A stretch of 64,000 nucleotides of DNA. Source: an uncultured Gammaproteobacteria bacterium (lineage in GTDB: Bacteria > Patescibacteriota > Microgenomatia > Levybacterales > UBA12049). Each line of letters begins with the position of its first letter. The first letter of the stretch is position 1. A model generated the notes under the pieces. The model had not been told where the DNA came from, did no database searches, and was given only the letters and a program-made list of their open reading frames with translations. The stretch spans positions 226,064 to 290,063 of the forward strand of contig CAZCYO010000001.1 in the NCBI GenBank assembly GCA_964503265.1, written 5' to 3'. A program made the translations under genes and the position numbers. Shown piece by piece: positions 9,390-62,968 of the stretch.

Positions 9390-11655
9390 TATCAATCCCA
9401 CTCTTTCTATTATTATCGTACATTATCATGTGGAACATGAATTAGTTGATTTGTTGCAGTCACTTGGAACTTCCCGGGAGCAGGAGATTATTGTAGTAGA
9501 TAATGACGAAAAGCCATTCATAGAGAAGCAGTTGACCAAGCAGTTTCCGTCCGTTATTTATCTGAAAAATAAAAAAAATCTTGGATTTGGAGTAGCAAAT
9601 AATATTGGCTCTAGAGTTGCAAAAGGAAAATATCTTTTTTTCATTAATCCCGACACCATAGTTGAAAAAGGTACAGTTGAAAAACTAATAACATTTTTAG
9701 ATAATCACAAAAAAGCTGGCGCTGTAGCGCCACTTCTTTACCACCCTGACGGAACTATTTTTGAGAAGCAAGGTGTTAAGACACTTACACCTCTTCGTGC
9801 ACTATTTTCAACTTCTCTTATTCATCGAATATGGCCAAATAATCCGATTGCACGTATGTATTGGAATGCTTCCTGGAAAAAAAAGACAGTTAAAGAAGTT
9901 GGTGCCTTACCTGGGACTGCATGTATGATAAGAAAAGAGTTGTTCGACGCAGTAGGCGGTTTTGATGAGAAATTCTTTTTATACTTTGAAGAATTTGATC
10001 TATGCCAAAGAATTAATCAGGGGGGATTATCGTTATATATGATTCCTGATACTAAAGTCATACATTTATGGGGTGTTTCAACTGGACAAAAAGATGATAA
10101 AGACCTTATCTTTAAGGAAAGCCAAGAGTATTATTTTAGAAAATATTATGGTTATGTTATAGCAAAGATTCTTACGACTTTCTTAACATTTGATAAATAC
10201 TCCCTACTGTTACTTCTTCTCTTACTACTCGGATTATTTCTGAGGACATACAGGATTACTGAATTATTTATGTTTATTGGGGATTTCGGATGGTTTTACT
10301 TATCTGCCTGGGATATGGTAACCAAAGGAATAATACCGCTAGTGAGTATTCCCTCCTCTGTCGTCTGGCTTCACCAGGGGCCACTCGCTACGTATATGAT
10401 GGCATTTGCATTATGGGCAGGGAGAATGAACCCTGTGGCTCCAGCACTTCTTTTTTCAGTTATTGATATGGTAACTATTTATTTCGTTTTTTTGCTGGGA
10501 AAAAAAATACGGAACGTAGAAACAGGAATAGTAGCTGCGCTTCTTTATGCTACGTCACCGTTAGTGTTAATCAATGTTCGAATGCCATATCACACGGCAA
10601 TTATTCCGTTTTTTGCTTGTAGTGTTATTTTAATGACGTTACTGGTATTGGAAAAGAAAAGATATTACTTCTGGCTTTTTTTCCTATCAGGACTGCTCAT
10701 ACAATTAGAGCTTTCCAATGCCATCGTTATGCTAATCTTTATGTTTCTTTTTATTTTCTATCGAGAAGAGATTACACTTCGTGTTTCTATTATTCGCGAG
10801 AGTGTATGTGGAATGTTACTGGGGATTTCCCCTTTTATTCTCTATGATGTAACCCATCATTTTACCCAAACACTTGGGTTTCCCTTATGGGTGCTTAATC
10901 GCGTTAGGTTATTCTTAGGTCTTACTACTAGTGGAAACGCCACTACTCATAATCTTCCACAAGTATTTGTGGTCTTGTGGGAGCATATTGCAAGAATTAT
11001 ATTTCCGTACTCAGAAATAATCGTTGCCATCGTTATACTGCTTGCTGTTACTATAATAGGAAGAAAAATAGTAACTACAAAGAAAGCGCTGTTACATAAT
11101 AAATCTTTTATTTTATTATTATTGTGGATCATTGTTCCATTTGTTAGTTTCATAGTTCATGCGGCGCCGGGAGATGCTTATTTTCCATTTCTCTTCCCAG
11201 CCATTATTCTGGGCGTAGCATATGCTTTCTCAGAGCTTTCTAACAATAAACGTATATTCACGTTATTTGTGGTTGTTTTTTTAAGTGTTTTTAATGCAGG
11301 GTACACTCTTTCACAAGATTATTTTCTTTCCACAGAAACTGGTGCTCATTATATGCCACCACATGGATATGGTTTTGGGCCAGCTTTTTATATTCAGAAT
11401 ACAGTTGCAAATAAGGTAACGAAGGATGCTGATGGTAACTCTATTCGTTTACGGGTAGGAGGATATCAAGGAAGTGTTAAAACAGGTGGGGATCAGTTTA
11501 AATATCTGCTTATGCAAAAAGGAGTGAAGCTTTCCTCCAATGCATCGTTAACGTATACAATTTATGAATCAAAGCGTGATATTCCACCAAATGAATCTGT
11601 CTTTTATCAAAATAATTACTATTTTGTAACAAAGACAACTAATGTTAATTTATAG
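9382..11655 (+). CDS. Fusion protein: N-terminal GT2 glycosyltransferase plus polytopic GT-C-like membrane domain.
   Basis: LSIIIVHYHVEHELVDLLQSL...IIVVDNDEKP and FINPDT (GT2), followed by about 400 aa of TM helices and a short C-terminal soluble tail. 757 aa. Confidence 0.7.
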   Translation: MNSINPTLSIIIVHYHVEHELVDLLQSLGTSREQEIIVVDNDEKPFIEKQLTKQFPSVIYLKNKKNLGFGVANNIGSRVAKGKYLFFINPDTIVEKGTVEKLITFLDNHKKAGAVAPLLYHPDGTIFEKQGVKTLTPLRALFSTSLIHRIWPNNPIARMYWNASWKKKTVKEVGALPGTACMIRKELFDAVGGFDEKFFLYFEEFDLCQRINQGGLSLYMIPDTKVIHLWGVSTGQKDDKDLIFKESQEYYFRKYYGYVIAKILTTFLTFDKYSLLLLLLLLLGLFLRTYRITELFMFIGDFGWFYLSAWDMVTKGIIPLVSIPSSVVWLHQGPLATYMMAFALWAGRMNPVAPALLFSVIDMVTIYFVFLLGKKIRNVETGIVAALLYATSPLVLINVRMPYHTAIIPFFACSVILMTLLVLEKKRYYFWLFFLSGLLIQLELSNAIVMLIFMFLFIFYREEITLRVSIIRESVCGMLLGISPFILYDVTHHFTQTLGFPLWVLNRVRLFLGLTTSGNATTHNLPQVFVVLWEHIARIIFPYSEIIVAIVILLAVTIIGRKIVTTKKALLHNKSFILLLLWIIVPFVSFIVHAAPGDAYFPFLFPAIILGVAYAFSELSNNKRIFTLFVVVFLSVFNAGYTLSQDYFLSTETGAHYMPPHGYGFGPAFYIQNTVANKVTKDADGNSIRLRVGGYQGSVKTGGDQFKYLLMQKGVKLSSNASLTYTIYESKRDIPPNESVFYQNNYYFVTKTTNVNL

Positions 11656-13024
11656 GATATATCATACGTAGAAATTTCATAATGCCTTGTGAATTGGTAT
11701 TAACTCCTAAATCGTACGTAGGGGACTGATAAAATCCTAGGAAATAAATGATAAGAGAAAAATTTATAAGTATAAATAGAAAACAAATAATATACATTGT
11801 TTTTGTATTAAATCGATTTTTTAGATAATCAAATAAACATGCTATTCCAAATGAAAGGAAGGGAAGCGTAGAGGTTAACATTCTTACGCTAAATGATTCT
11901 CCTTGTTGCCACGCAGACCAACTAGCTATGAGGTAATACTCTACTACAAATAAGGTAATGAAATACCATCCAAGAGATTTTTCTTTTTTACTAAACGGTA
12001 CTAACCCTAGAATTCCTATGATAACTCCTGGTGACCACCAGAGAAGTCCAATTTTAGAGTTAATAAGTAGCTCAAGCAAATGGGGATTGAGTAAATAAAA
12101 CCCTTCTTTACCGGCAATATATGGACTACGCGTGAACGTCCCGTACATAAGATACCAAACATACATTTGAATCGAGAAAACTAATAGGAAGCCTGCAAAG
12201 AGTACTAGTATATAAAGAAAGTTAGCTACAATGGCACGAAAATTATGTGATTGTATTTTTTGCACTGCATGTTTTCCTATCGCGATAACTGGAAGAAGCA
12301 AAAATATACCCTCTTGTGTCCTAGTCATTGCCATATATCCAACAGTCATGCCAATTGTAAAATAGAGTAATTTTGAAGGATTTGAAATACTCCGTATAAA
12401 TAATAATAAAAAAATACAACTAAGGAGAAATGTTAATGGAAGTGAGTTAACGACATCGATAGCAGCGTAATAGAAAAGAAATGTCGCAAACGTCAGAAAA
12501 ATAATTGTCAACATTGTTACCGATTTACTAAAATATTTTTTAAGCTGAAGAGAAAGTAGATATAGTCCGAGAGAAACAAATAGTACGTTCCATACGCCAG
12601 TTATAATTTGGTATATATCGGAATAACCCAAATTGCTAATATTTGGATTAAAGAAACGTAGTGTATTTGATATACTATCTGCAAATGTAAAAGCTGGAAG
12701 CCATGAGAGAGGAGCTCCCACAGGATATCTGTTCACTGTATAACCAGTTTTTGTATAGTCATTGACGTAACCTAGGGGTTCTTCTACCGCTCTATTATTA
12801 TTTTCGTGAGAATAGTGATGTCCGAGTTCATTTTTAAATTGTATGTCATGATCTTTATAAATTGATCTCGTGAATGCATAGTAAAAAATTCCATCACCAT
12901 AGACTGCTTGACCGACAATTATATAGTGAAGAAGAAAAACTCCAACTAAAAAAGGGAAGATACCAAAGAATATTAATCGCTTAAAAAGCATCTTTTTATT
13001 ATACTGTGGTAGAATTAAATACAC
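11645..13024 (-). CDS. Polytopic membrane protein, GT-C-like. Converges on the previous gene with an 11-bp tail-to-tail overlap.
   Basis: 459 aa, many hydrophobic helices, extracytoplasmic loop YGDGIFYY... Confidence 0.45.
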   Translation of the reverse strand: MYLILPQYNKKMLFKRLIFFGIFPFLVGVFLLHYIIVGQAVYGDGIFYYAFTRSIYKDHDIQFKNELGHHYSHENNNRAVEEPLGYVNDYTKTGYTVNRYPVGAPLSWLPAFTFADSISNTLRFFNPNISNLGYSDIYQIITGVWNVLFVSLGLYLLSLQLKKYFSKSVTMLTIIFLTFATFLFYYAAIDVVNSLPLTFLLSCIFLLLFIRSISNPSKLLYFTIGMTVGYMAMTRTQEGIFLLLPVIAIGKHAVQKIQSHNFRAIVANFLYILVLFAGFLLVFSIQMYVWYLMYGTFTRSPYIAGKEGFYLLNPHLLELLINSKIGLLWWSPGVIIGILGLVPFSKKEKSLGWYFITLFVVEYYLIASWSAWQQGESFSVRMLTSTLPFLSFGIACLFDYLKNRFNTKTMYIICFLFILINFSLIIYFLGFYQSPTYDLGVNTNSQGIMKFLRMIYPIN

Positions 13025-22201: not shown

Positions 22202-22320
22202 AATAGCAAGAGAATGGCGTTTTTGTGAGAAGAATTATTCACAAATGTATAACGTAGTGTTCAACTGATTGCCATCGCGATTTGCGTGTATGGAGTACCA
22301 GTTGGCACAACACTATACAT

Positions 22321-22349
22321 GTTCTTCTTCACAAGAACGCCTTTTTTAT
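22321..22349 (+). terminator. Candidate intrinsic terminator for the islet 1 operon.
   Basis: GTTCTT-cttcac-AAGAAC hairpin followed by gccTTTTTTaT. Confidence 0.35.
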
Positions 22350-22394
22350 GTCTTTTTTCTCTGAAACTTTGAAACTATGAGGCTCTGAAACTAT

Positions 22395-53193: not shown

Positions 53194-53459
53194 TTAGCTT
53201 ATTGTCATTGCGAGAAGCCAAGCGACGAAGCAATCTCTTCTCCTGTTATTCTGGAAAGCACCGACTTTTCCAGAATCCTATATCAAAATTAACCCCATAG
53301 TTCTATTTTTCCTTATCTTTTGTTATAATTCAGGCGTACATTTACATTGTGAGATATCACACATGGTCGGCTTTTTGTTCATTCACGAAGTGAATAAGAA
53401 GCTTGCCATGTGGCAGCCAAGTTGTACTACAATTTGCATTACTACGGTTGGAGAAAAAG

Positions 53460-53762
53460 ATGGAAAACATGTTCGGAGGAAAAGTTGTCTATCGACCGGA
53501 GTTCATGCCCGAAGATGGGAAGTACATGCTGATCCTCTTTACGGTAGAAGAAATCAATGTGCCTGCTCATGGTGAAACTGCCGAAAAGCAGTTGGTCGTA
53601 CCTACTCATCAGATTGAAGCCTATGTCGATCTCGAGAGCATTTCTCAACGTGTCGAAGGTCTGATGAAACGTGAGCCAGGTCGAACTGACTTCATTATCC
53701 TGCATGCCGACCAGCTCCAGGTCGTGACGAATTATACCCTCACGGGCTGTAGTAGGACATAA
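53460..53762 (+). CDS. Hypothetical small protein (GC-rich islet 3, ORF 1).
   Basis: GGAG 7 nt upstream of ATG. 100 aa. GC-rich codons. Confidence 0.45.
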   Translation: MENMFGGKVVYRPEFMPEDGKYMLILFTVEEINVPAHGETAEKQLVVPTHQIEAYVDLESISQRVEGLMKREPGRTDFIILHADQLQVVTNYTLTGCSRT

Positions 53763-53818
53763 TCACTGCATACAGTCAATTCTTGCACCATATAGGTGCT
53801 GAACTTAGGGGGGTCTCT

Positions 53819-54037
53819 ATGGACGAGAAGGATGTCCTGCGGATCAAGAATCGGCACTCTCGGCAGTTGAGGCAGAGGCCGAAAGTTAACGGTGTTGGCA
53901 CGTGTGTGATTAACGGAGTGCACTGTGTGCACGTCTGGCTGACAAGTGAAGCTGAACCGTCTGACAACCTGCCGGCGACCCTTGAGGGTGTTCCGGTGGT
54001 CTACGAAGTTCTCGGCGAGATCATTCCTCGGAACTAG
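53819..54037 (+). CDS. Hypothetical small protein (GC-rich islet 3, ORF 2).
   Basis: AGGGGGG upstream of ATG. 72 aa. GC-rich codons. Confidence 0.45.
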   Translation: MDEKDVLRIKNRHSRQLRQRPKVNGVGTCVINGVHCVHVWLTSEAEPSDNLPATLEGVPVVYEVLGEIIPRN

Positions 54038-54220
54038 AAGCTGTATGATTTTCTCATTCACCAATCACAGTAACTATACATAAGCACCAGAAGGGTGCGG
54101 AAGTAAAAGGAGGATTTGGCCTGTCACTCGCTGATAGGACGCAAAAACCCTTGGTCTTCCGACCACACCCCAAGGTGCTTTTTGCGTTTTATACAGCTGT
54201 TTTGTGCTAAAATACGCACA

Positions 54221-57244: not shown

Positions 57245-57352
57245 AAAAATTGTCATTCCCGCGAAGGCGGGAATCTATTGAAAGTCTGGATCCCCGATCC
57301 CAACTTCGCCAAGGCTTCGCTGGGCGAGGCAGGTCGGGGATGACACAATGAT

Positions 57353-58675: not shown

Positions 58676-60943
58676 CTATTTAAGTATTTTCCGTTCAATT
58701 TTAGCAATGTGTTCTCGAACACGAGGAACGACATCTGATGAAACAGAAACACTCGTTACACCCCATTCTAATAATTTTTCAAGAAGTTCTGGATAAAGTG
58801 ATGCAGCCTGCCCACAGACTGAAGAAGTGATATGATTTTTACGCGCAGTCTTAATAGTGTGCTCAAGTGCCCAGAGCATCGCTGGGTTTTGTTCATCATA
58901 AGATCGTGCTACTTCGCTATTATCTCGATCAGTTCCAAGCATAAGCATTGTTAAATCATTTGTCCCCACAGAAACACCATCGATGCCTACTTTTATGAAC
59001 TCATCAAGAAGTACAACGTTTGCTGGGATTTCAACCATCATCCAGAGTCTAAAGAGAGGAGAACGTTGTAACCCTGCATCATTAATGATTTTTTTTACTT
59101 CAATTAATTCTCGAACAGTTCTCACGAATGGAACCATAAGCCAAAGATTTTTAAGATTTTTTTTCTGTCTTACAATTTTAATTGCTTCTAGCTCAAGTGC
59201 GAAAACCTCAGGATCATGAATATATCGAAATGCACCTCGATATCCAAGCATGGGATTTGCTTCGACTGGCTCATATTCGCGACCACCGACGAGTCCTCGA
59301 TATTCATTTGTTTTAAAATCAGATGCTCGATAAATAACAGGGCGAGGATTAAAAGCAGTACAGAATATTTCAATTTGTGATGCTAATTTTTCGATAAATT
59401 CTTGTTTCTTGCCATCTCTAATCATTTTCTTTGGATGAACACCAATTCCAGCCATCATAAATTCAGCTCTCAGTAGTCCAATCCCATCGACATTTTTAGC
59501 GGCCATACTACTTGCTAGTTCTGGCTCAGCAAGATTTATATATACTTTGGTAGCTGTTTTCGTATGAATATTTTCATCGTGTGGGGAGTTCTGATCGTTT
59601 GATAAAAAGGTCGCACCTTTATAGACTTCACCTTTGGATCCGTTGACTGTAACGACCATGCCATTTTTAAGTATCGACAATGCATGTTCTGTCCCGACGA
59701 CAGCTGGAGTTCCAAGTTCTCGTGACACAATGGCAGCATGGGATGTTCGTCCACCCTTTTCAGTGATTATGGCAGCTGCTTTTTTCATCGCAGGAACAAA
59801 GTCCGGGTTGGTCTGTGAAGCAACTAGAATATCTCCTGGCATGAGTGATTCCATATCTCGAATTGAATGAAGTATCTTAACCGGTCCTGAAGCAAGACCA
59901 GGGGAAGCAGGTGAGCCTTGAAGCAGTAGTTCTAATTTTGTTGATGGAGTATGCGTCTCAGCTACCTTTTTATTATGAAGTGTTGTAATCGCACGAGTCT
60001 GGACGACATAAATATGATTTTTTTCAATAGCCCATTCTATGTCTTGTGGAAAATAATAGTGCTTCTCAAGCTTACGACCAAGATCTGCCAGGCCTAATAT
60101 TTCCATTTCTGTTAGTTTTTGTGTTTTTCCTTCTCGAGCAGATAGTTTACTTTCTTTATTCTTTCCGTTAATTCTTTCTAATTTCACATCTTGTGTCGCA
60201 ACGCTCGTTTTTAAAATTGTATTTCTATCTTTTGCAACTTCATAGTGATCTGGTGTTACCTTGCCCCCGACGATGTATTCTCCGAGTCCATAAATCGCTT
60301 CAATAATAATCTTTGATTTATCCTGTAACACAGGATCAACTGTGAACATAATACCTGATTTCTCAGACTCGATCATTGCCTGCACGACAACTGCGATGCC
60401 AACTCTAAAGTGGTCAAATTTTTGTTCATGTCGATAAAAAATTGCCCGTGCGTCAAATAATGATGCCCAGGCATCTTTTATTTTTAGAATCAGGTTGGCT
60501 TCGCCTTTAACATTGAGATATGTTTCTTGTTGGCCAGCAAATGAGGCAGTAGGGAGGTCTTCAGCGGTAGCACTTGAGCGAACTGCAACAAGTGGATCTT
60601 CAAGCACGCCACCTAATGATTTGTAGAAATGAAAAATTTCTTGAATTAGTTCTTCTGAGAGATGTTCATGCGTAATGAGATTTTTTATATGACTTGAGAC
60701 TTGCATGAGAGATTCTGGATGATCGAAGTTAACTGTACGCAAGAGGTGATTTATTTTTGTGGTAAGATTATTTTCTTTAAGAAATTGGAAATACGCTTTG
60801 GACGAAACAATAAATCCTGGAGGGACAGGAAAACCAGCTTTCGTCATTTCACCTAAGTTAGCACCTTTGCCACCAACGAGTGAAATATCATCTTTAGTAA
60901 CTTCTTTAAACCAGTAGATCTGATTCGTTCGTTTCGTGGGCAT
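58676..60943 (-). CDS. ppsA: Phosphoenolpyruvate synthase / pyruvate,water dikinase family.
   Basis: N-terminal ATP-grasp (SLVGGKGANLGEM), central phospho-His domain (GGRTSHAAIVSRELGTPAVVG), C-terminal PEP-utilising TIM barrel. Confidence 0.85.
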   Translation of the reverse strand: MPTKRTNQIYWFKEVTKDDISLVGGKGANLGEMTKAGFPVPPGFIVSSKAYFQFLKENNLTTKINHLLRTVNFDHPESLMQVSSHIKNLITHEHLSEELIQEIFHFYKSLGGVLEDPLVAVRSSATAEDLPTASFAGQQETYLNVKGEANLILKIKDAWASLFDARAIFYRHEQKFDHFRVGIAVVVQAMIESEKSGIMFTVDPVLQDKSKIIIEAIYGLGEYIVGGKVTPDHYEVAKDRNTILKTSVATQDVKLERINGKNKESKLSAREGKTQKLTEMEILGLADLGRKLEKHYYFPQDIEWAIEKNHIYVVQTRAITTLHNKKVAETHTPSTKLELLLQGSPASPGLASGPVKILHSIRDMESLMPGDILVASQTNPDFVPAMKKAAAIITEKGGRTSHAAIVSRELGTPAVVGTEHALSILKNGMVVTVNGSKGEVYKGATFLSNDQNSPHDENIHTKTATKVYINLAEPELASSMAAKNVDGIGLLRAEFMMAGIGVHPKKMIRDGKKQEFIEKLASQIEIFCTAFNPRPVIYRASDFKTNEYRGLVGGREYEPVEANPMLGYRGAFRYIHDPEVFALELEAIKIVRQKKNLKNLWLMVPFVRTVRELIEVKKIINDAGLQRSPLFRLWMMVEIPANVVLLDEFIKVGIDGVSVGTNDLTMLMLGTDRDNSEVARSYDEQNPAMLWALEHTIKTARKNHITSSVCGQAASLYPELLEKLLEWGVTSVSVSSDVVPRVREHIAKIERKILK

Positions 60944-61009
60944 TACATCTATTATGTATTAAATGGATAGGATGTATCAAGAGTATTTTAGGGGTTTTTA
61001 AGAATGGTT

Positions 61010-61036
61010 GTACCGGGGATTTGAGATCCCCGGTAC
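61010..61036. terminator. Perfect 11-bp GC-rich hairpin (GTACCGGGGAT-ttgag-ATCCCCGGTAC) between the islet 4 operon end and the ppsA start.
   Basis: Read directly from the sequence. No clear U-tract on either side. Confidence 0.35.
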
Positions 61037-61067
61037 ATCTGATTGCACTGAAATGGCGAGAGTGAGA

Positions 61068-61376
61068 TTAATAGTTGATCTGAATTCCTGAAGCTGTTTC
61101 TATGCTTTTTTTGAAGAGTTTTCCCCGCATCAGCCAATGCTGTTTGTTAGGCATTGCTTTGAACGGGACTGGCTTTTCGAGAGCGATGAAAACGCTAGAA
61201 AGAGAGATGGGCATCAAGTTGTGCGTATATCGGACACGAATCCAGACATTTGGACTCATTCCCGGTAGACGCCATTCTACGAACACGCGAGGTGACAAAT
61301 CTGGAATATTTTCCAGAGTCTCCCAGTCATCGGGTGGATTCTGAAGTAATTCGACAGGAATGTGAATCGTCGGCAT
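61068..61376 (-). CDS. Hypothetical small protein (GC-rich islet 4, ORF 2).
   Basis: AGGAGGTG SD directly upstream of ATG. 102 aa. Confidence 0.5.
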   Translation of the reverse strand: MPTIHIPVELLQNPPDDWETLENIPDLSPRVFVEWRLPGMSPNVWIRVRYTHNLMPISLSSVFIALEKPVPFKAMPNKQHWLMRGKLFKKSIETASGIQINY

Positions 61377-61386
61377 GTGGCACCTC

Positions 61387-61782
61387 CTACAGATGTGTTA
61401 TGACGATATGGTCGATGTGATCCTGCATCGAGATAAGTTGTTCATGACGCATCCGATTCTTGTTTGAGTATACGACACCTTTGATTTGCTTTTTCTTCCA
61501 GACAACCTCGATTCGAGTGATCTTTAGTGGATGGTCACTCGATTGTACATGTGCCCTGACCTGGAAAAGGTTTTTGTGATACTTTTTCCAGGAAATTACA
61601 TAGCCAGCGGCTACTGCATCAGGACAATCTACTATCGTCCAGTCACTGGGTATAGTGCCGAGAAAACGCGAGATCGGAATGGTAATCTTCAGGGGTTTTT
61701 TCAACTGACTCTCCTTTACTTTCTGTTCATCTTGAACAGGACGAGAGAAGGGGAATCTATCCCATCCTTTCTTCCTGTTCAA
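61387..61782 (-). CDS. Hypothetical small protein (GC-rich islet 4, ORF 1). Start uncertain.
   Basis: The ORF-track start is TTG without an SD. An internal AAGGAG-N7-TTG is an alternative start. Confidence 0.4.
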   Translation of the reverse strand: MNRKKGWDRFPFSRPVQDEQKVKESQLKKPLKITIPISRFLGTIPSDWTIVDCPDAVAAGYVISWKKYHKNLFQVRAHVQSSDHPLKITRIEVVWKKKQIKGVVYSNKNRMRHEQLISMQDHIDHIVITHL

Positions 61783-61912
61783 AACTATTCTTATAAAAGT
61801 GCAAAGCTAACTATGATTTCTTGTAGTATAAAACGCAAAAATGTTCTATAAGACGCGAAACTTGTTTTGATTATACTAGATTTAGAGGAAAAGTGTAAGT
61901 TATAGGATGTGA

Positions 61913-62968
61913 CTAGCTTTTTTTGAGTTCGTCTTTAAACCAATCTACCCATGGGTTGGTTGCAGGGTTTTGATCATAGCGAAGTCCTAGATAAAGTGTT
62001 AGATAACTTCCGTAAGCCAGAACTTCTAAGAAATCATCATAAATAGTGGCTCCCGAAGTCATCATCTCGTGTACGACATGATTATTTTGTTTGACGACAT
62101 CAATCGTGAGTTCCATTCTTTTTTTAATTTTAGGCGAGTAATTTGGTGAGTTAAGGACGATAAAATGAAGTGGTGATTCAGTCGGGAATTGAAGTCCTTC
62201 CATTAAGTGATGATTTAAATCTGGTACGAGATAGAAAGCTGAGAACGCTTTACTTGTTTCGTTAAACTGATTTCTAAAGATTTGACCGTTACCTGATAAA
62301 TGTTCAGCTGCGAAAATGACGGGAATTTTATTCACGAATGTTTCTGAATCCTGCATCGCTCGTGCTTTAATATTAGGAAGGTTTTCTTTGAGTCTCGTGA
62401 CAGCATCACGAATTTCACGTTCTTCGACATCTATGATACCTGTCTTATTAAGAAGTCCGATAAGACCAAGGATGGTATATCCATTTCCAAGTCGTGGAAC
62501 ACCAGCTGGATTTAATTTTCCGTCAAAGATATATGCAGGAATAGAGTTTGTTTTCGCAAATTCTGCCAACTGACCACCTTTGGTGAGAATAACCATCTTC
62601 GCACTTTTATCTTTCGCTTCCTGTGCACATGACAAAACTTCTTCAGTTGTTCCAGAATAACTAGTCAGAACCACGAGGGTGTTTTCATTAACATACGAGG
62701 GAAGGTGATAATCAGAAATTACTTCAGTTGGATATGGCATTTCTGAACCTTGAAGAGCTTTAATAACAAGTGCACCATAGACAGATGCTCCCATACCGCA
62801 GAAGACGATATTTTGAATATTTCCCAGGTCAGTCGGAAGATCAAGCGCATTCACTTGCTGCCAAGCTGCTTCCATCTGCTCAGCCATCATTTCAGTTGAG
62901 GCTACAGTATCCTGTGGATCGATTTTTTTAATTGCTTCTAAGTCAGTTAAATTTTGCATATATTTCAA
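61913..62968 (-). CDS. pgi: Bifunctional phosphoglucose/phosphomannose isomerase (SIS domain, archaeal-type PGI/PMI).
   Basis: SIS motif FCGMGASVYGAL, about 350 aa, two SIS halves. Confidence 0.75.
   Translation of the reverse strand: MKYMQNLTDLEAIKKIDPQDTVASTEMMAEQMEAAWQQVNALDLPTDLGNIQNIVFCGMGASVYGALVIKALQGSEMPYPTEVISDYHLPSYVNENTLVVLTSYSGTTEEVLSCAQEAKDKSAKMVILTKGGQLAEFAKTNSIPAYIFDGKLNPAGVPRLGNGYTILGLIGLLNKTGIIDVEEREIRDAVTRLKENLPNIKARAMQDSETFVNKIPVIFAAEHLSGNGQIFRNQFNETSKAFSAFYLVPDLNHHLMEGLQFPTESPLHFIVLNSPNYSPKIKKRMELTIDVVKQNNHVVHEMMTSGATIYDDFLEVLAYGSYLTLYLGLRYDQNPATNPWVDWFKDELKKS

Follow-up and report, generated by a model that had tools for sequence, protein, structure and literature searches.

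A probable moron-like operon of two orphan genes inserted between pgi and ppsA in a Levybacteria genome

The 969-bp spacer that separates a ppsA-like gene from pgi in the window (the 64,000-nucleotide stretch of contig CAZCYO010000001.1 analysed here) raises the question of how two small genes without recognisable relatives came to lie between genes of core metabolism, and whether they belong to a recurring type of insert. This interval, 60944-61912, was presented in a preliminary description as the fourth of four islets of elevated GC content (islet 4), whose common design suggested one unrecognised cassette type. Our results favour another answer: the segment ~60991-61912 is probably a 0.9-kb insertion known from one species of Levybacteria, i.e., a self-contained, insulated, moron-like operon of two orphan genes that is not native to the genome carrying it. 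Both genes, the upstream open reading frame ORF2 and the downstream ORF1, lie on the minus strand, as had been proposed, and the coordinates of the features are collected in Table 1. The neighbourhood had also been placed correctly, given that the islet is flanked by a phosphoenolpyruvate (PEP) synthase/PPDK-type enzyme and by phosphoglucose isomerase (PGI), past which lies a cupin-type mannose-6-phosphate-isomerase-like gene (pmi).

The relatives of the PGI protein place the window in Candidatus Levybacteria (Levyibacteriota, Candidate Phyla Radiation (CPR)), the nearest species in the genome collection presenting ~74% PGI identity. The gene order pmi-pgi-ppsA-eno is conserved across dozens of Levybacteria, and the pgi-ppsA gap spans just 48-100 bp in nine relative species, versus 969 bp in the window. 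In the five closest relatives (L004, L005, L007, L009 and L014) this gap has no strong hairpin and mostly carries the window's ppsA promoter motif; the motif, CTCTTG[C/A]TA...CATAAT, fills the short gap in L004, L005, L007, L009 and L012, in which the site is empty. Given that the closest relatives combine a short, hairpin-free gap with the retained promoter motif, ~60991-61912, including the hairpins at both of its ends, is added DNA, i.e., an insertion in the pgi-ppsA spacer. Exact-protein lookups of pgi and pmi for strains free of the insert returned the same contigs only. Two candidate marks of the insertion event were set aside. The 9-bp repeat ATAGGATGT (60967 and 61902) brackets the insert like a target-site duplication, yet 14% of shuffles present an equal one, and a terminal inverted repeat (60995-61009 and 61783-61797, 13 of 15 positions matched) was judged unremarkable in AT-rich DNA.

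In other species the pgi-ppsA junction carries unrelated cargo, which includes an ImmA-like peptidase, a desaturase, purD, a surface protein and assorted small orphans. The lexA-rsmI junction, where islet 3 lies (53194-54217), is equally variable across L004, L007, L013, L021, L035, L068, L074 and L075, being empty (53-119 bp) in some species and occupied by 0.6-2.3 kb of unrelated sequence elsewhere; none of these eight related loci yielded a homologue of the islet-3 ORFs at lexA-rsmI. Both junctions are hotspots with lineage-specific content. A further occupant of the pgi-ppsA junction was observed in another Levybacteria species (L013, JBBTTO010000002.1, ~11195-11751), namely an unrelated 138-aa orphan with a GC content at third codon positions (GC3) of 0.58. 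Its start codon lies 30 nt past the end of a 57-nt hairpin of -35 kcal/mol, and 25 nt separate its stop codon from the beginning of a GC-rich hairpin. This unit has the same hairpin-orphan-hairpin design as the islets of the window.

An assembly chimera, or contaminant DNA joined to a Levybacteria contig, had been named as an alternative. The composition of islet 4, unlike that of the neighbouring genes, would fit such a history, as would the low coverage of the public contigs (~2.2x for L002, a figure from the record name). The junctions recur, however, in other assemblies: the Logan assembly of SRR12487046 presents 100% identity over 4.7 kb spanning both of them, and the ENA assembly ERZ4216102, which spans the pgi-side junction, is 99.9% identical, with all three differences in pgi. 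The ppsA-side junction is also spanned by strain L003, a 1,087-bp contig from the unrelated sequencing run SRR22387748 that is 94.5% identical to the window and presents the ORF2 tail, ORF1, the hairpin and the ppsA start contiguously and in the same order. Furthermore, the synonymous divergence (dS) of islet 4 from L003 is 0.22, of the same order as that of the adjacent ppsA (0.13). A chimera is effectively refuted, its probability being negligible.

The same strain pair was used to assess the coding status of the two frames. In comparison with L003, ORF1 presents a ratio of nonsynonymous to synonymous substitution (omega, Nei-Gojobori method) of 0.30, with 13 of 28 differences synonymous (binomial p = 0.004), and the last 67 codons of ORF2 present an omega of 0.11, with 8 of 12 differences synonymous (p = 6e-4). 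The differences number 11, 6 and 23 at the first, second and third codon positions, a 3-base periodicity with a chi-square p of 0.003. Four of the five alternative frames of ORF1 yield an omega of 0.7-2.9; the antisense frame with common third codon positions also yields 0.30, but it is not open. Given the low omega, the synonymous excess and the periodicity in open frames, ORF1 and ORF2 are genuine protein-coding genes under purifying selection. Twelve strain differences form a local variable patch in codons 54-61 of ORF1 (61194-61217), turning LMPISLSS into SISLRLTD, and the remainder of ORF1 is well conserved.

The islet ORFs had been described as small and acidic, which is not the case here, since the isoelectric point (pI) is 9.2 for ORF1 and 10.1 for the 131-aa form of ORF2. 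ORF2 is rich in lysine and arginine and is predicted to be mostly beta, while ORF1 is predicted to be all-beta. The products are small, basic, beta-rich cytoplasmic proteins that are selectively maintained. A faint likeness exists between the two N-termini (I.IP..L..P.DW..PD....W), and the predicted secondary-structure order agrees at an offset of +3. As a sign of paralogy this is suggestive, yet not significant (BLASTP E = 0.064, shuffle z = 2.4, hhalign probability 0.8%).

Neither gene has a relative elsewhere in the collections searched. A word-indexed search of 5.8 billion proteins returned only ORF1 itself and its L003 copy, and zero matches for ORF2. The latter is absent from that collection and is uncalled on both public contigs carrying it, likely having been missed by gene callers because of its TTG start and atypical codon usage. 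phmmer, run in full against 1.84 billion representatives, yielded no relative of either protein. Its sole extra match, P0003 (778 aa, E = 6e-14 to ORF1), was rejected because the score sums nine stretches of ~7 bits each; P0003 is a spurious translation of a tandem hairpin-repeat array, TGTCATTCC...GGAATC, which contains ...CHSWRRPGIQESPWIQ.... Nothing was matched at E <= 0.1 in Pfam, PHROGs, PADLOC and NCBIfam, and six-frame tblastn of phage and plasmid collections was negative save one match at E = 0.5. Scans of JGI metagenomes with ORF2 peptides and with a degenerate pattern of the ppsA 5' end found nothing. In the other islets the picture is similar: none of the eight ORFs of the four islets matched Pfam, and a 177-aa ORF of islet 2 has no relative outside the species. 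The islet-4 genes are species-specific orphans under selection, without a homologue outside the species.

The claim of elevated GC stands for the codons and hardly for the total. Total GC of 60944-61912 is 0.416, versus a background (20-64 kb) of 0.402, and the highest value over 300 nt is 0.477 (~+1.8 standard deviations). GC3, in turn, is 0.48 in ORF1 (z = 2.6) and 0.49 in ORF2 (z = 2.8), versus 0.313 +/- 0.064 in the core genes, for which 27 genes of >= 200 aa served as reference and none of which lies above z = 1.2. The other three GC peaks (21.3-22.2 kb, 29.0-30.0 kb and 53.4-54.0 kb) contain six ORFs, and all eight islet ORFs are GC3 outliers, with z = 2.0-5.0. Furthermore, the synonymous codons of each islet are better predicted by the other three islets, pooled, than by the host model, which holds for 0 of 500 host segments. 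A GC3 of ~0.48, against 0.31 in the host, suggests that the islet-4 DNA did not originate in this genome. A GC-richer donor, also raised in the preliminary description, is compatible with this composition, although no donor homologue was found in any database searched.

These results bear on a native origin, according to which the unit arose de novo from expanded intergenic DNA, or through runaway divergence of an old gene or of a tandem duplicate. No homologues and no mobility genes were found, as would be expected in that case, and the faint N-terminal likeness of ORF1 and ORF2 could reflect an old tandem duplication. Moreover, most species-specific orphans of bacteria are argued to be native (PMC11293555). 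However, the likeness between the two proteins is not significant, their GC3 lies 2.6-2.8 standard deviations above that of host genes, and the codon bias is common to three other, unlinked islets. Only 48-100 bp exist at the site in relatives, so ~0.9 kb of new DNA needs explaining. Typical orphan genes match the GC and GC3 of the host, and phage-like or de novo ones are lower, i.e., native or de novo orphans track host GC or fall below it (PMC11293555). In comparison, the islet genes are compositionally atypical for orphans, being GC3-richer rather than host-like or AT-richer. A native origin is therefore considered unlikely.

Read as an acquired and insulated operon, islet 4 would be expressed as follows. 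Transcription would start at the putative promoter just past the pgi stop, and the transcript would then pass through a stable hairpin in its 5' leader; the probable role of this hairpin is to stop read-through from pgi, to stabilise the mRNA, or both. This second, longer hairpin had gone unmentioned in the preliminary description. Its arms, TTGAACAGGA...TCCTGTTCAA, are 83% complementary and end 28 nt upstream of the ORF2 start codon; the structure reaches -32.9 kcal/mol in a 101-nt context (z = -3.9), and its zone yields z = -4.6, with 0 of 60 shuffles equal. ORF2 would be translated from a weak TTG start, the one at 61704 being the better candidate because AAGGAG stands 6 nt upstream of it and the start of the alternative 131-aa form would fall within the strong leader hairpin. 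ORF1 would be translated by coupling to ORF2, because its strong Shine-Dalgarno sequence, AGGAGGTG, overlaps the ORF2 stop codon. This is the perfect Shine-Dalgarno previously noted; its core AGGAGGT is kept in L003, in which the last base alone is changed, from G to A, giving AGGAGGTA. An internal hairpin, 61386-61455, stops just upstream of it.

Transcription would end at the perfect GC-rich 3' hairpin, which would shield the retained ancestral ppsA promoter. The inverted repeat had been reported with 11-bp arms and is indeed perfect: the forward strand reads GTACCGGGGAT-ttgag-ATCCCCGGTAC at 61010-61036, and a flanking T/A pair extends the arms to 12 bp (61009-61020 and 61026-61037), so that the minus strand reads TGTACCGGGGAT-CTCAA-ATCCCCGGTACA (61037-61009). 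The hairpin begins 30 nt past the ORF1 stop, occurs once in the window, and presents -22 kcal/mol as RNA (z = -4.7, 0 of 200 shuffles equal). In L003 a 9-10-bp stem remains despite four substitutions in the stem top and loop, and the ppsA promoter region is identical. The probable source of the islet is a mobile or viral gene pool that is so far unsampled, given that the codon bias suggests a non-host origin. As to function, an accessory pair of addiction, defence or nucleic-acid-binding type is our guess, held with low confidence; two coupled genes of ~100 codons with their own putative promoter and a palindrome before the first gene are compatible with an addiction, defence or regulator type.

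Table 1. Positions of islet 4, its parts and its flanking genes in the window.
Feature	Position	Strand	Remarks
ppsA-like gene (PEP synthase/PPDK-type enzyme)	58676-60943	minus	
Ancestral ppsA promoter region, CTCTTGATA ... CATAAT	60951-60985	minus	outside the insert; TTGATA-N18-CATAAT at 60980..60951
3' terminal hairpin, perfect 12-bp stem, 5-nt loop	61009-61037	minus	putative terminator/insulator ahead of the ppsA promoter
ORF1, 102 aa, ATG start	61068-61376	minus	10 nt downstream of ORF2
ORF1 Shine-Dalgarno, AGGAGGTG	61381-61388	minus	4 nt before ATG; overlaps ORF2 stop TAG
ORF2, 105 aa, TTG start at 61704	61387-61704	minus	stop codon TAG at 61387-61389
ORF2 Shine-Dalgarno, AAGGAG	61711-61716	minus	6 nt upstream of the TTG start; by reading the sequence
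5' leader hairpin, imperfect inverted repeat	61732-61782	minus	23-nt arms, 61732-61754 and 61760-61782
Promoter-like site, CTTACA-N18-TATAAT	61899..61870	minus	putative promoter of the two-gene unit; 10 of 12 consensus matches; begins 14 nt past the pgi stop
pgi (bacterial phosphoglucose isomerase)	61913-62968	minus	

Several findings weigh against this account. Promoter-like sites occur at chance frequency (3 in the region versus 2.0 expected), and both islet-4 hairpins are free of a U-tract, so that neither is a canonical intrinsic terminator; the 3' hairpin was not flagged in the terminator scan. The estimates of selection come from one strain pair and 40 substitutions. As for the foreign origin, it is composition that argues for it, with no donor or homologue found, and islet 4 deviates less than the other three islets. 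The structure predictions are of low confidence (pLDDT 52.5 and 43) and support no specific function. The toxin-antitoxin and defence families of Pfam, NCBIfam and PADLOC were searched and none matched, and both islet-4 proteins are basic, versus the acidic antitoxin and basic toxin that are typical. Finally, the structure of the islet transcript leaves room for an added role at the RNA level, which it may have.

That structure is also the main argument for a further rival, in which islet 4 would act chiefly as a structured non-coding RNA, or as a regulatory leader of ppsA, with incidental ORFs. GC-rich islands in AT-rich genomes are often such RNAs. The islet-4 mRNA (61040-61725, minus strand) folds better than shuffles (z = -2.1, 0 of 20 equal), whereas pieces of core genes of equal length fold worse than theirs (ppsA 59000-59685, z = +1.3; pgi 62100-62785, z = +1.5). 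Several strong internal hairpins exist, and ORF2 was never called by gene callers. However, the substitutions follow a 3-base period, synonymous changes are in excess in precisely those frames that are open, and both ORFs have a good Shine-Dalgarno at the correct spacing. In Rfam, islet 4 has no match at the gathering threshold or at E <= 0.3, i.e., chance-level matches only. Relatives that lack the segment express ppsA from the same conserved promoter. An essentially non-coding islet is thus very unlikely, and the coding operon remains the preferred reading.

Whether the four islets have more than composition in common is best judged from their boundaries. Most of the strongest 70-nt hairpins of the whole window flank the four islets, and a strong hairpin is present in 8 of 8 islet boundary zones. 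The median best 70-nt folding energy is -29.4 kcal/mol in these zones, versus -13.7 kcal/mol in the 24 other intergenic gaps (Mann-Whitney p ~1e-4). In comparison with length- and dinucleotide-matched shuffles, the 5' hairpins present z = -4.6 to -7.4 and the 3' hairpins z = -2.2 to -4.1. The 5' hairpins are 53-62 nt long and end 27-48 nt upstream of the first start codon, and in islet 2 the two ORFs are separated by an additional hairpin. Within the window, the four islets form a real class. The common design that had been claimed for them is partly supported. Elevated GC3, a codon bias and strong end hairpins are common to all four, but a sequence, protein family, repeats or recombinase are not: the eight islet proteins present no pairwise similarity (all E > 0.2), the hairpins have no evident common sequence when read by eye, unaligned, flanking direct repeats do not exceed chance, and no second copy of any unit was found in the window or in any database searched. 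As the preliminary description had stated, no integrase or transposase exists among the ORFs scanned in the 64-kb window, nor does a recombinase. The idea of one cassette type, taken as a single family of mobile elements, is not supported by these comparisons. The resemblance probably has two reasons, i.e., the source may have been similar, and it may be that only insulated units are tolerated between the essential genes of a compact genome. Given that any insulated transcription unit, with its promoter, leader hairpin, genes and terminator hairpin, would look alike anyway, no common mobilisation mechanism or single cassette-moving machinery is required.

A broader form of the cassette idea should nonetheless be weighed, in which the four islets are one unrecognised class of mobile gene cassettes whose terminal hairpins are recombination sites, recognised as folded single-stranded DNA (ssDNA) by an enzyme encoded elsewhere. 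It is modelled on integron attC sites, or on the end hairpins of IS200/IS605 elements and PATEs. IS200/IS605 elements have no terminal inverted repeats and produce no target duplication. In the islets, likewise, neither exceeds chance, and both ends of all four carry strong hairpins. The common codon bias, the hairpin between the islet-2 ORFs, and the same design at the same junction in L013, another species, also fit. On the other hand, the eight hairpins have no evident structural signature in common, by the same reading by eye, attC core sites (RYYYAAC/GTTRRRY) are not visible at the islet-4 hairpins, and the stem of the 3' hairpin is perfect, without extrahelical bases. No ORF for an integrase, a Y1 transposase or a TnpB-like protein was found in the 64 kb, the units are single-copy in window and databases, and the islet site is unchanged between strains diverged at a dS of ~0.2. 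In 65 other Levybacteria loci, hairpins adjoin GC3-outlier ORFs more often (23% vs 7%, p = 0.03), a weak enrichment in an outlier set that is noisy and includes spurious ORFs of rRNA type. We therefore regard a mobile-cassette class as improbable. There is likewise only a slim chance that Levybacteria hold a new, recombinase-less class of cassettes, with one to three GC3-rich orphans between a long, imperfect hairpin on the 5' side and a GC-rich one on the 3' side, inserted between core genes by a hairpin-recognising ssDNA mechanism acting in trans, supplied by the cell, a phage or a host organism.

Other structured or variable parts of the window were also observed. A family of GC-rich hairpins resembling repetitive extragenic palindromes (REP-like), with the foot TGTCAT[TC][CG], has 14 matches versus 4.9 expected, 12 of them in intergenic gaps between core genes; start positions are 22885, 27217, 35829/35884, 38326, 46047/46125, 48806/48851, 53203 and 57251/57335. 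The GC peak at 57257-57352, in the gpmA-eno gap (GC 0.58, -33 kcal/mol), consists of two such hairpins, without ORFan genes. The array behind P0003 is built of hairpin repeats of this type. The islet-4 3' hairpin was considered as a member of this family and ruled out, given that it starts with TGTACC and has no second copy in the window. At 22202-22394, between the convergent atpC stop and the end of islet 1, a nested hairpin of very large size (-62 kcal/mol over ~140 nt) precedes T-runs and is possibly a bidirectional terminator. The first part of the window, 1-20200, has a GC of 0.33 versus 0.40 and a GC3 of 0.25, and is a cell-envelope glycosylation cluster with an epimerase/dehydratase, several GT2, GT1 and GT87 glycosyltransferases, PMT_2-type proteins, a flippase and a Wzy-like ligase. 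This cluster is probably a variable region of its own. Beyond the first 20 kb, the window encodes core metabolism, replication and repair.

Islet 4 is fixed in the species and, taken alone, is an ordinary kind of object. Its interest lies in its context. CPR genomes are tiny and streamlined, and the route by which they gain new genes is poorly understood. Here, four compact, insulated orphan-gene units are wedged between essential genes (at ATP synthase, dnaE, lexA/rsmI and pgi/ppsA). Their common codon bias is richer in GC than the host, whereas foreign or orphan DNA is usually marked by AT-richness, and selection maintains at least the islet-4 genes. Should the packaging reflect a mechanism, this would amount to a new route of gene gain, and if the cassette reading were true, otherwise minimal genomes would have a steady source of new proteins. 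If it reflects the survivorship of insulated inserts, it illustrates what compact genomes tolerate. ORF2, moreover, is a selected gene that public gene callers overlooked. The added interest is modest, consisting of the shared packaging and GC3 bias of the four units, the missed gene, and a small chance that the hairpins mark an unrecognised insertion mechanism.

In comparison with known systems, the islets resemble integron cassettes in being small and recombinase-free, with orphan ORFs, an often atypical composition and a terminal hairpin, imperfect or perfect. They differ in that no intI, attI or array exists in the 64 kb, in being dispersed singly between core genes, and in having a 5' hairpin and apparently their own promoter as well; no R''/R' core heptamers were read at the islet-4 hairpins. 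As in IS200/IS605-PATE elements, hairpins lie sub-terminally at both ends of the islets, and neither terminal inverted repeats nor a target-site duplication is present. Unlike these elements, the islets have no tnpA or tnpB in the window, are single-copy, and carry two orphan genes as cargo; their left and right hairpins are mutually unrelated, also between islets.

Type II toxin-antitoxin systems are similar to islet 4 in presenting two genes of ~100 codons with an overlap of stop and Shine-Dalgarno that implies coupling, a putative promoter of their own and a palindrome between it and the first gene, and in being accessory, strain-level units; toxin-antitoxin operons are often carried as morons. 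The islet differs in the family searches and the two basic proteins mentioned above, and in having no recognisable DNA-binding fold. On testable features, membership of islet 4 in integron cassettes, in IS200/IS605-PATE elements and in known toxin-antitoxin families fails.

The closest likenesses are to morons and to orphan genes. The moron concept is reportedly due to Hendrix and colleagues. A phage moron consists of additional DNA lodged between conserved genes; it brings a promoter and/or terminator of its own, deviates in GC, and often sits at hotspots and often carries addiction or defence cargo (PMC2920897). Unlike a moron, islet 4 lies in a cellular CPR chromosome, among genes for glycolysis, gluconeogenesis, ATP synthase and replication, the ORFs scanned in the window include no phage genes, the GC of the islet is above that of the host rather than below, and the unit is known from this species only. 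As is the case with orphan genes (PMC11293555; PMC12315717), the islet-4 genes are short, known from one species and under purifying selection, have no homologues or domains, and present a codon usage that is non-optimal for the host, yet islet genes are GC3-richer by 2.6-5 standard deviations and form hairpin-bounded two-gene units. Like a moron, islet 4 lies between conserved syntenic genes and is absent from relatives that keep the gene order, has a promoter-like site (at chance frequency) and a terminal hairpin (without a U-tract), deviates from its neighbours in GC3 and codon usage and only slightly in total GC, and occupies a junction that holds different cargo in different genomes.

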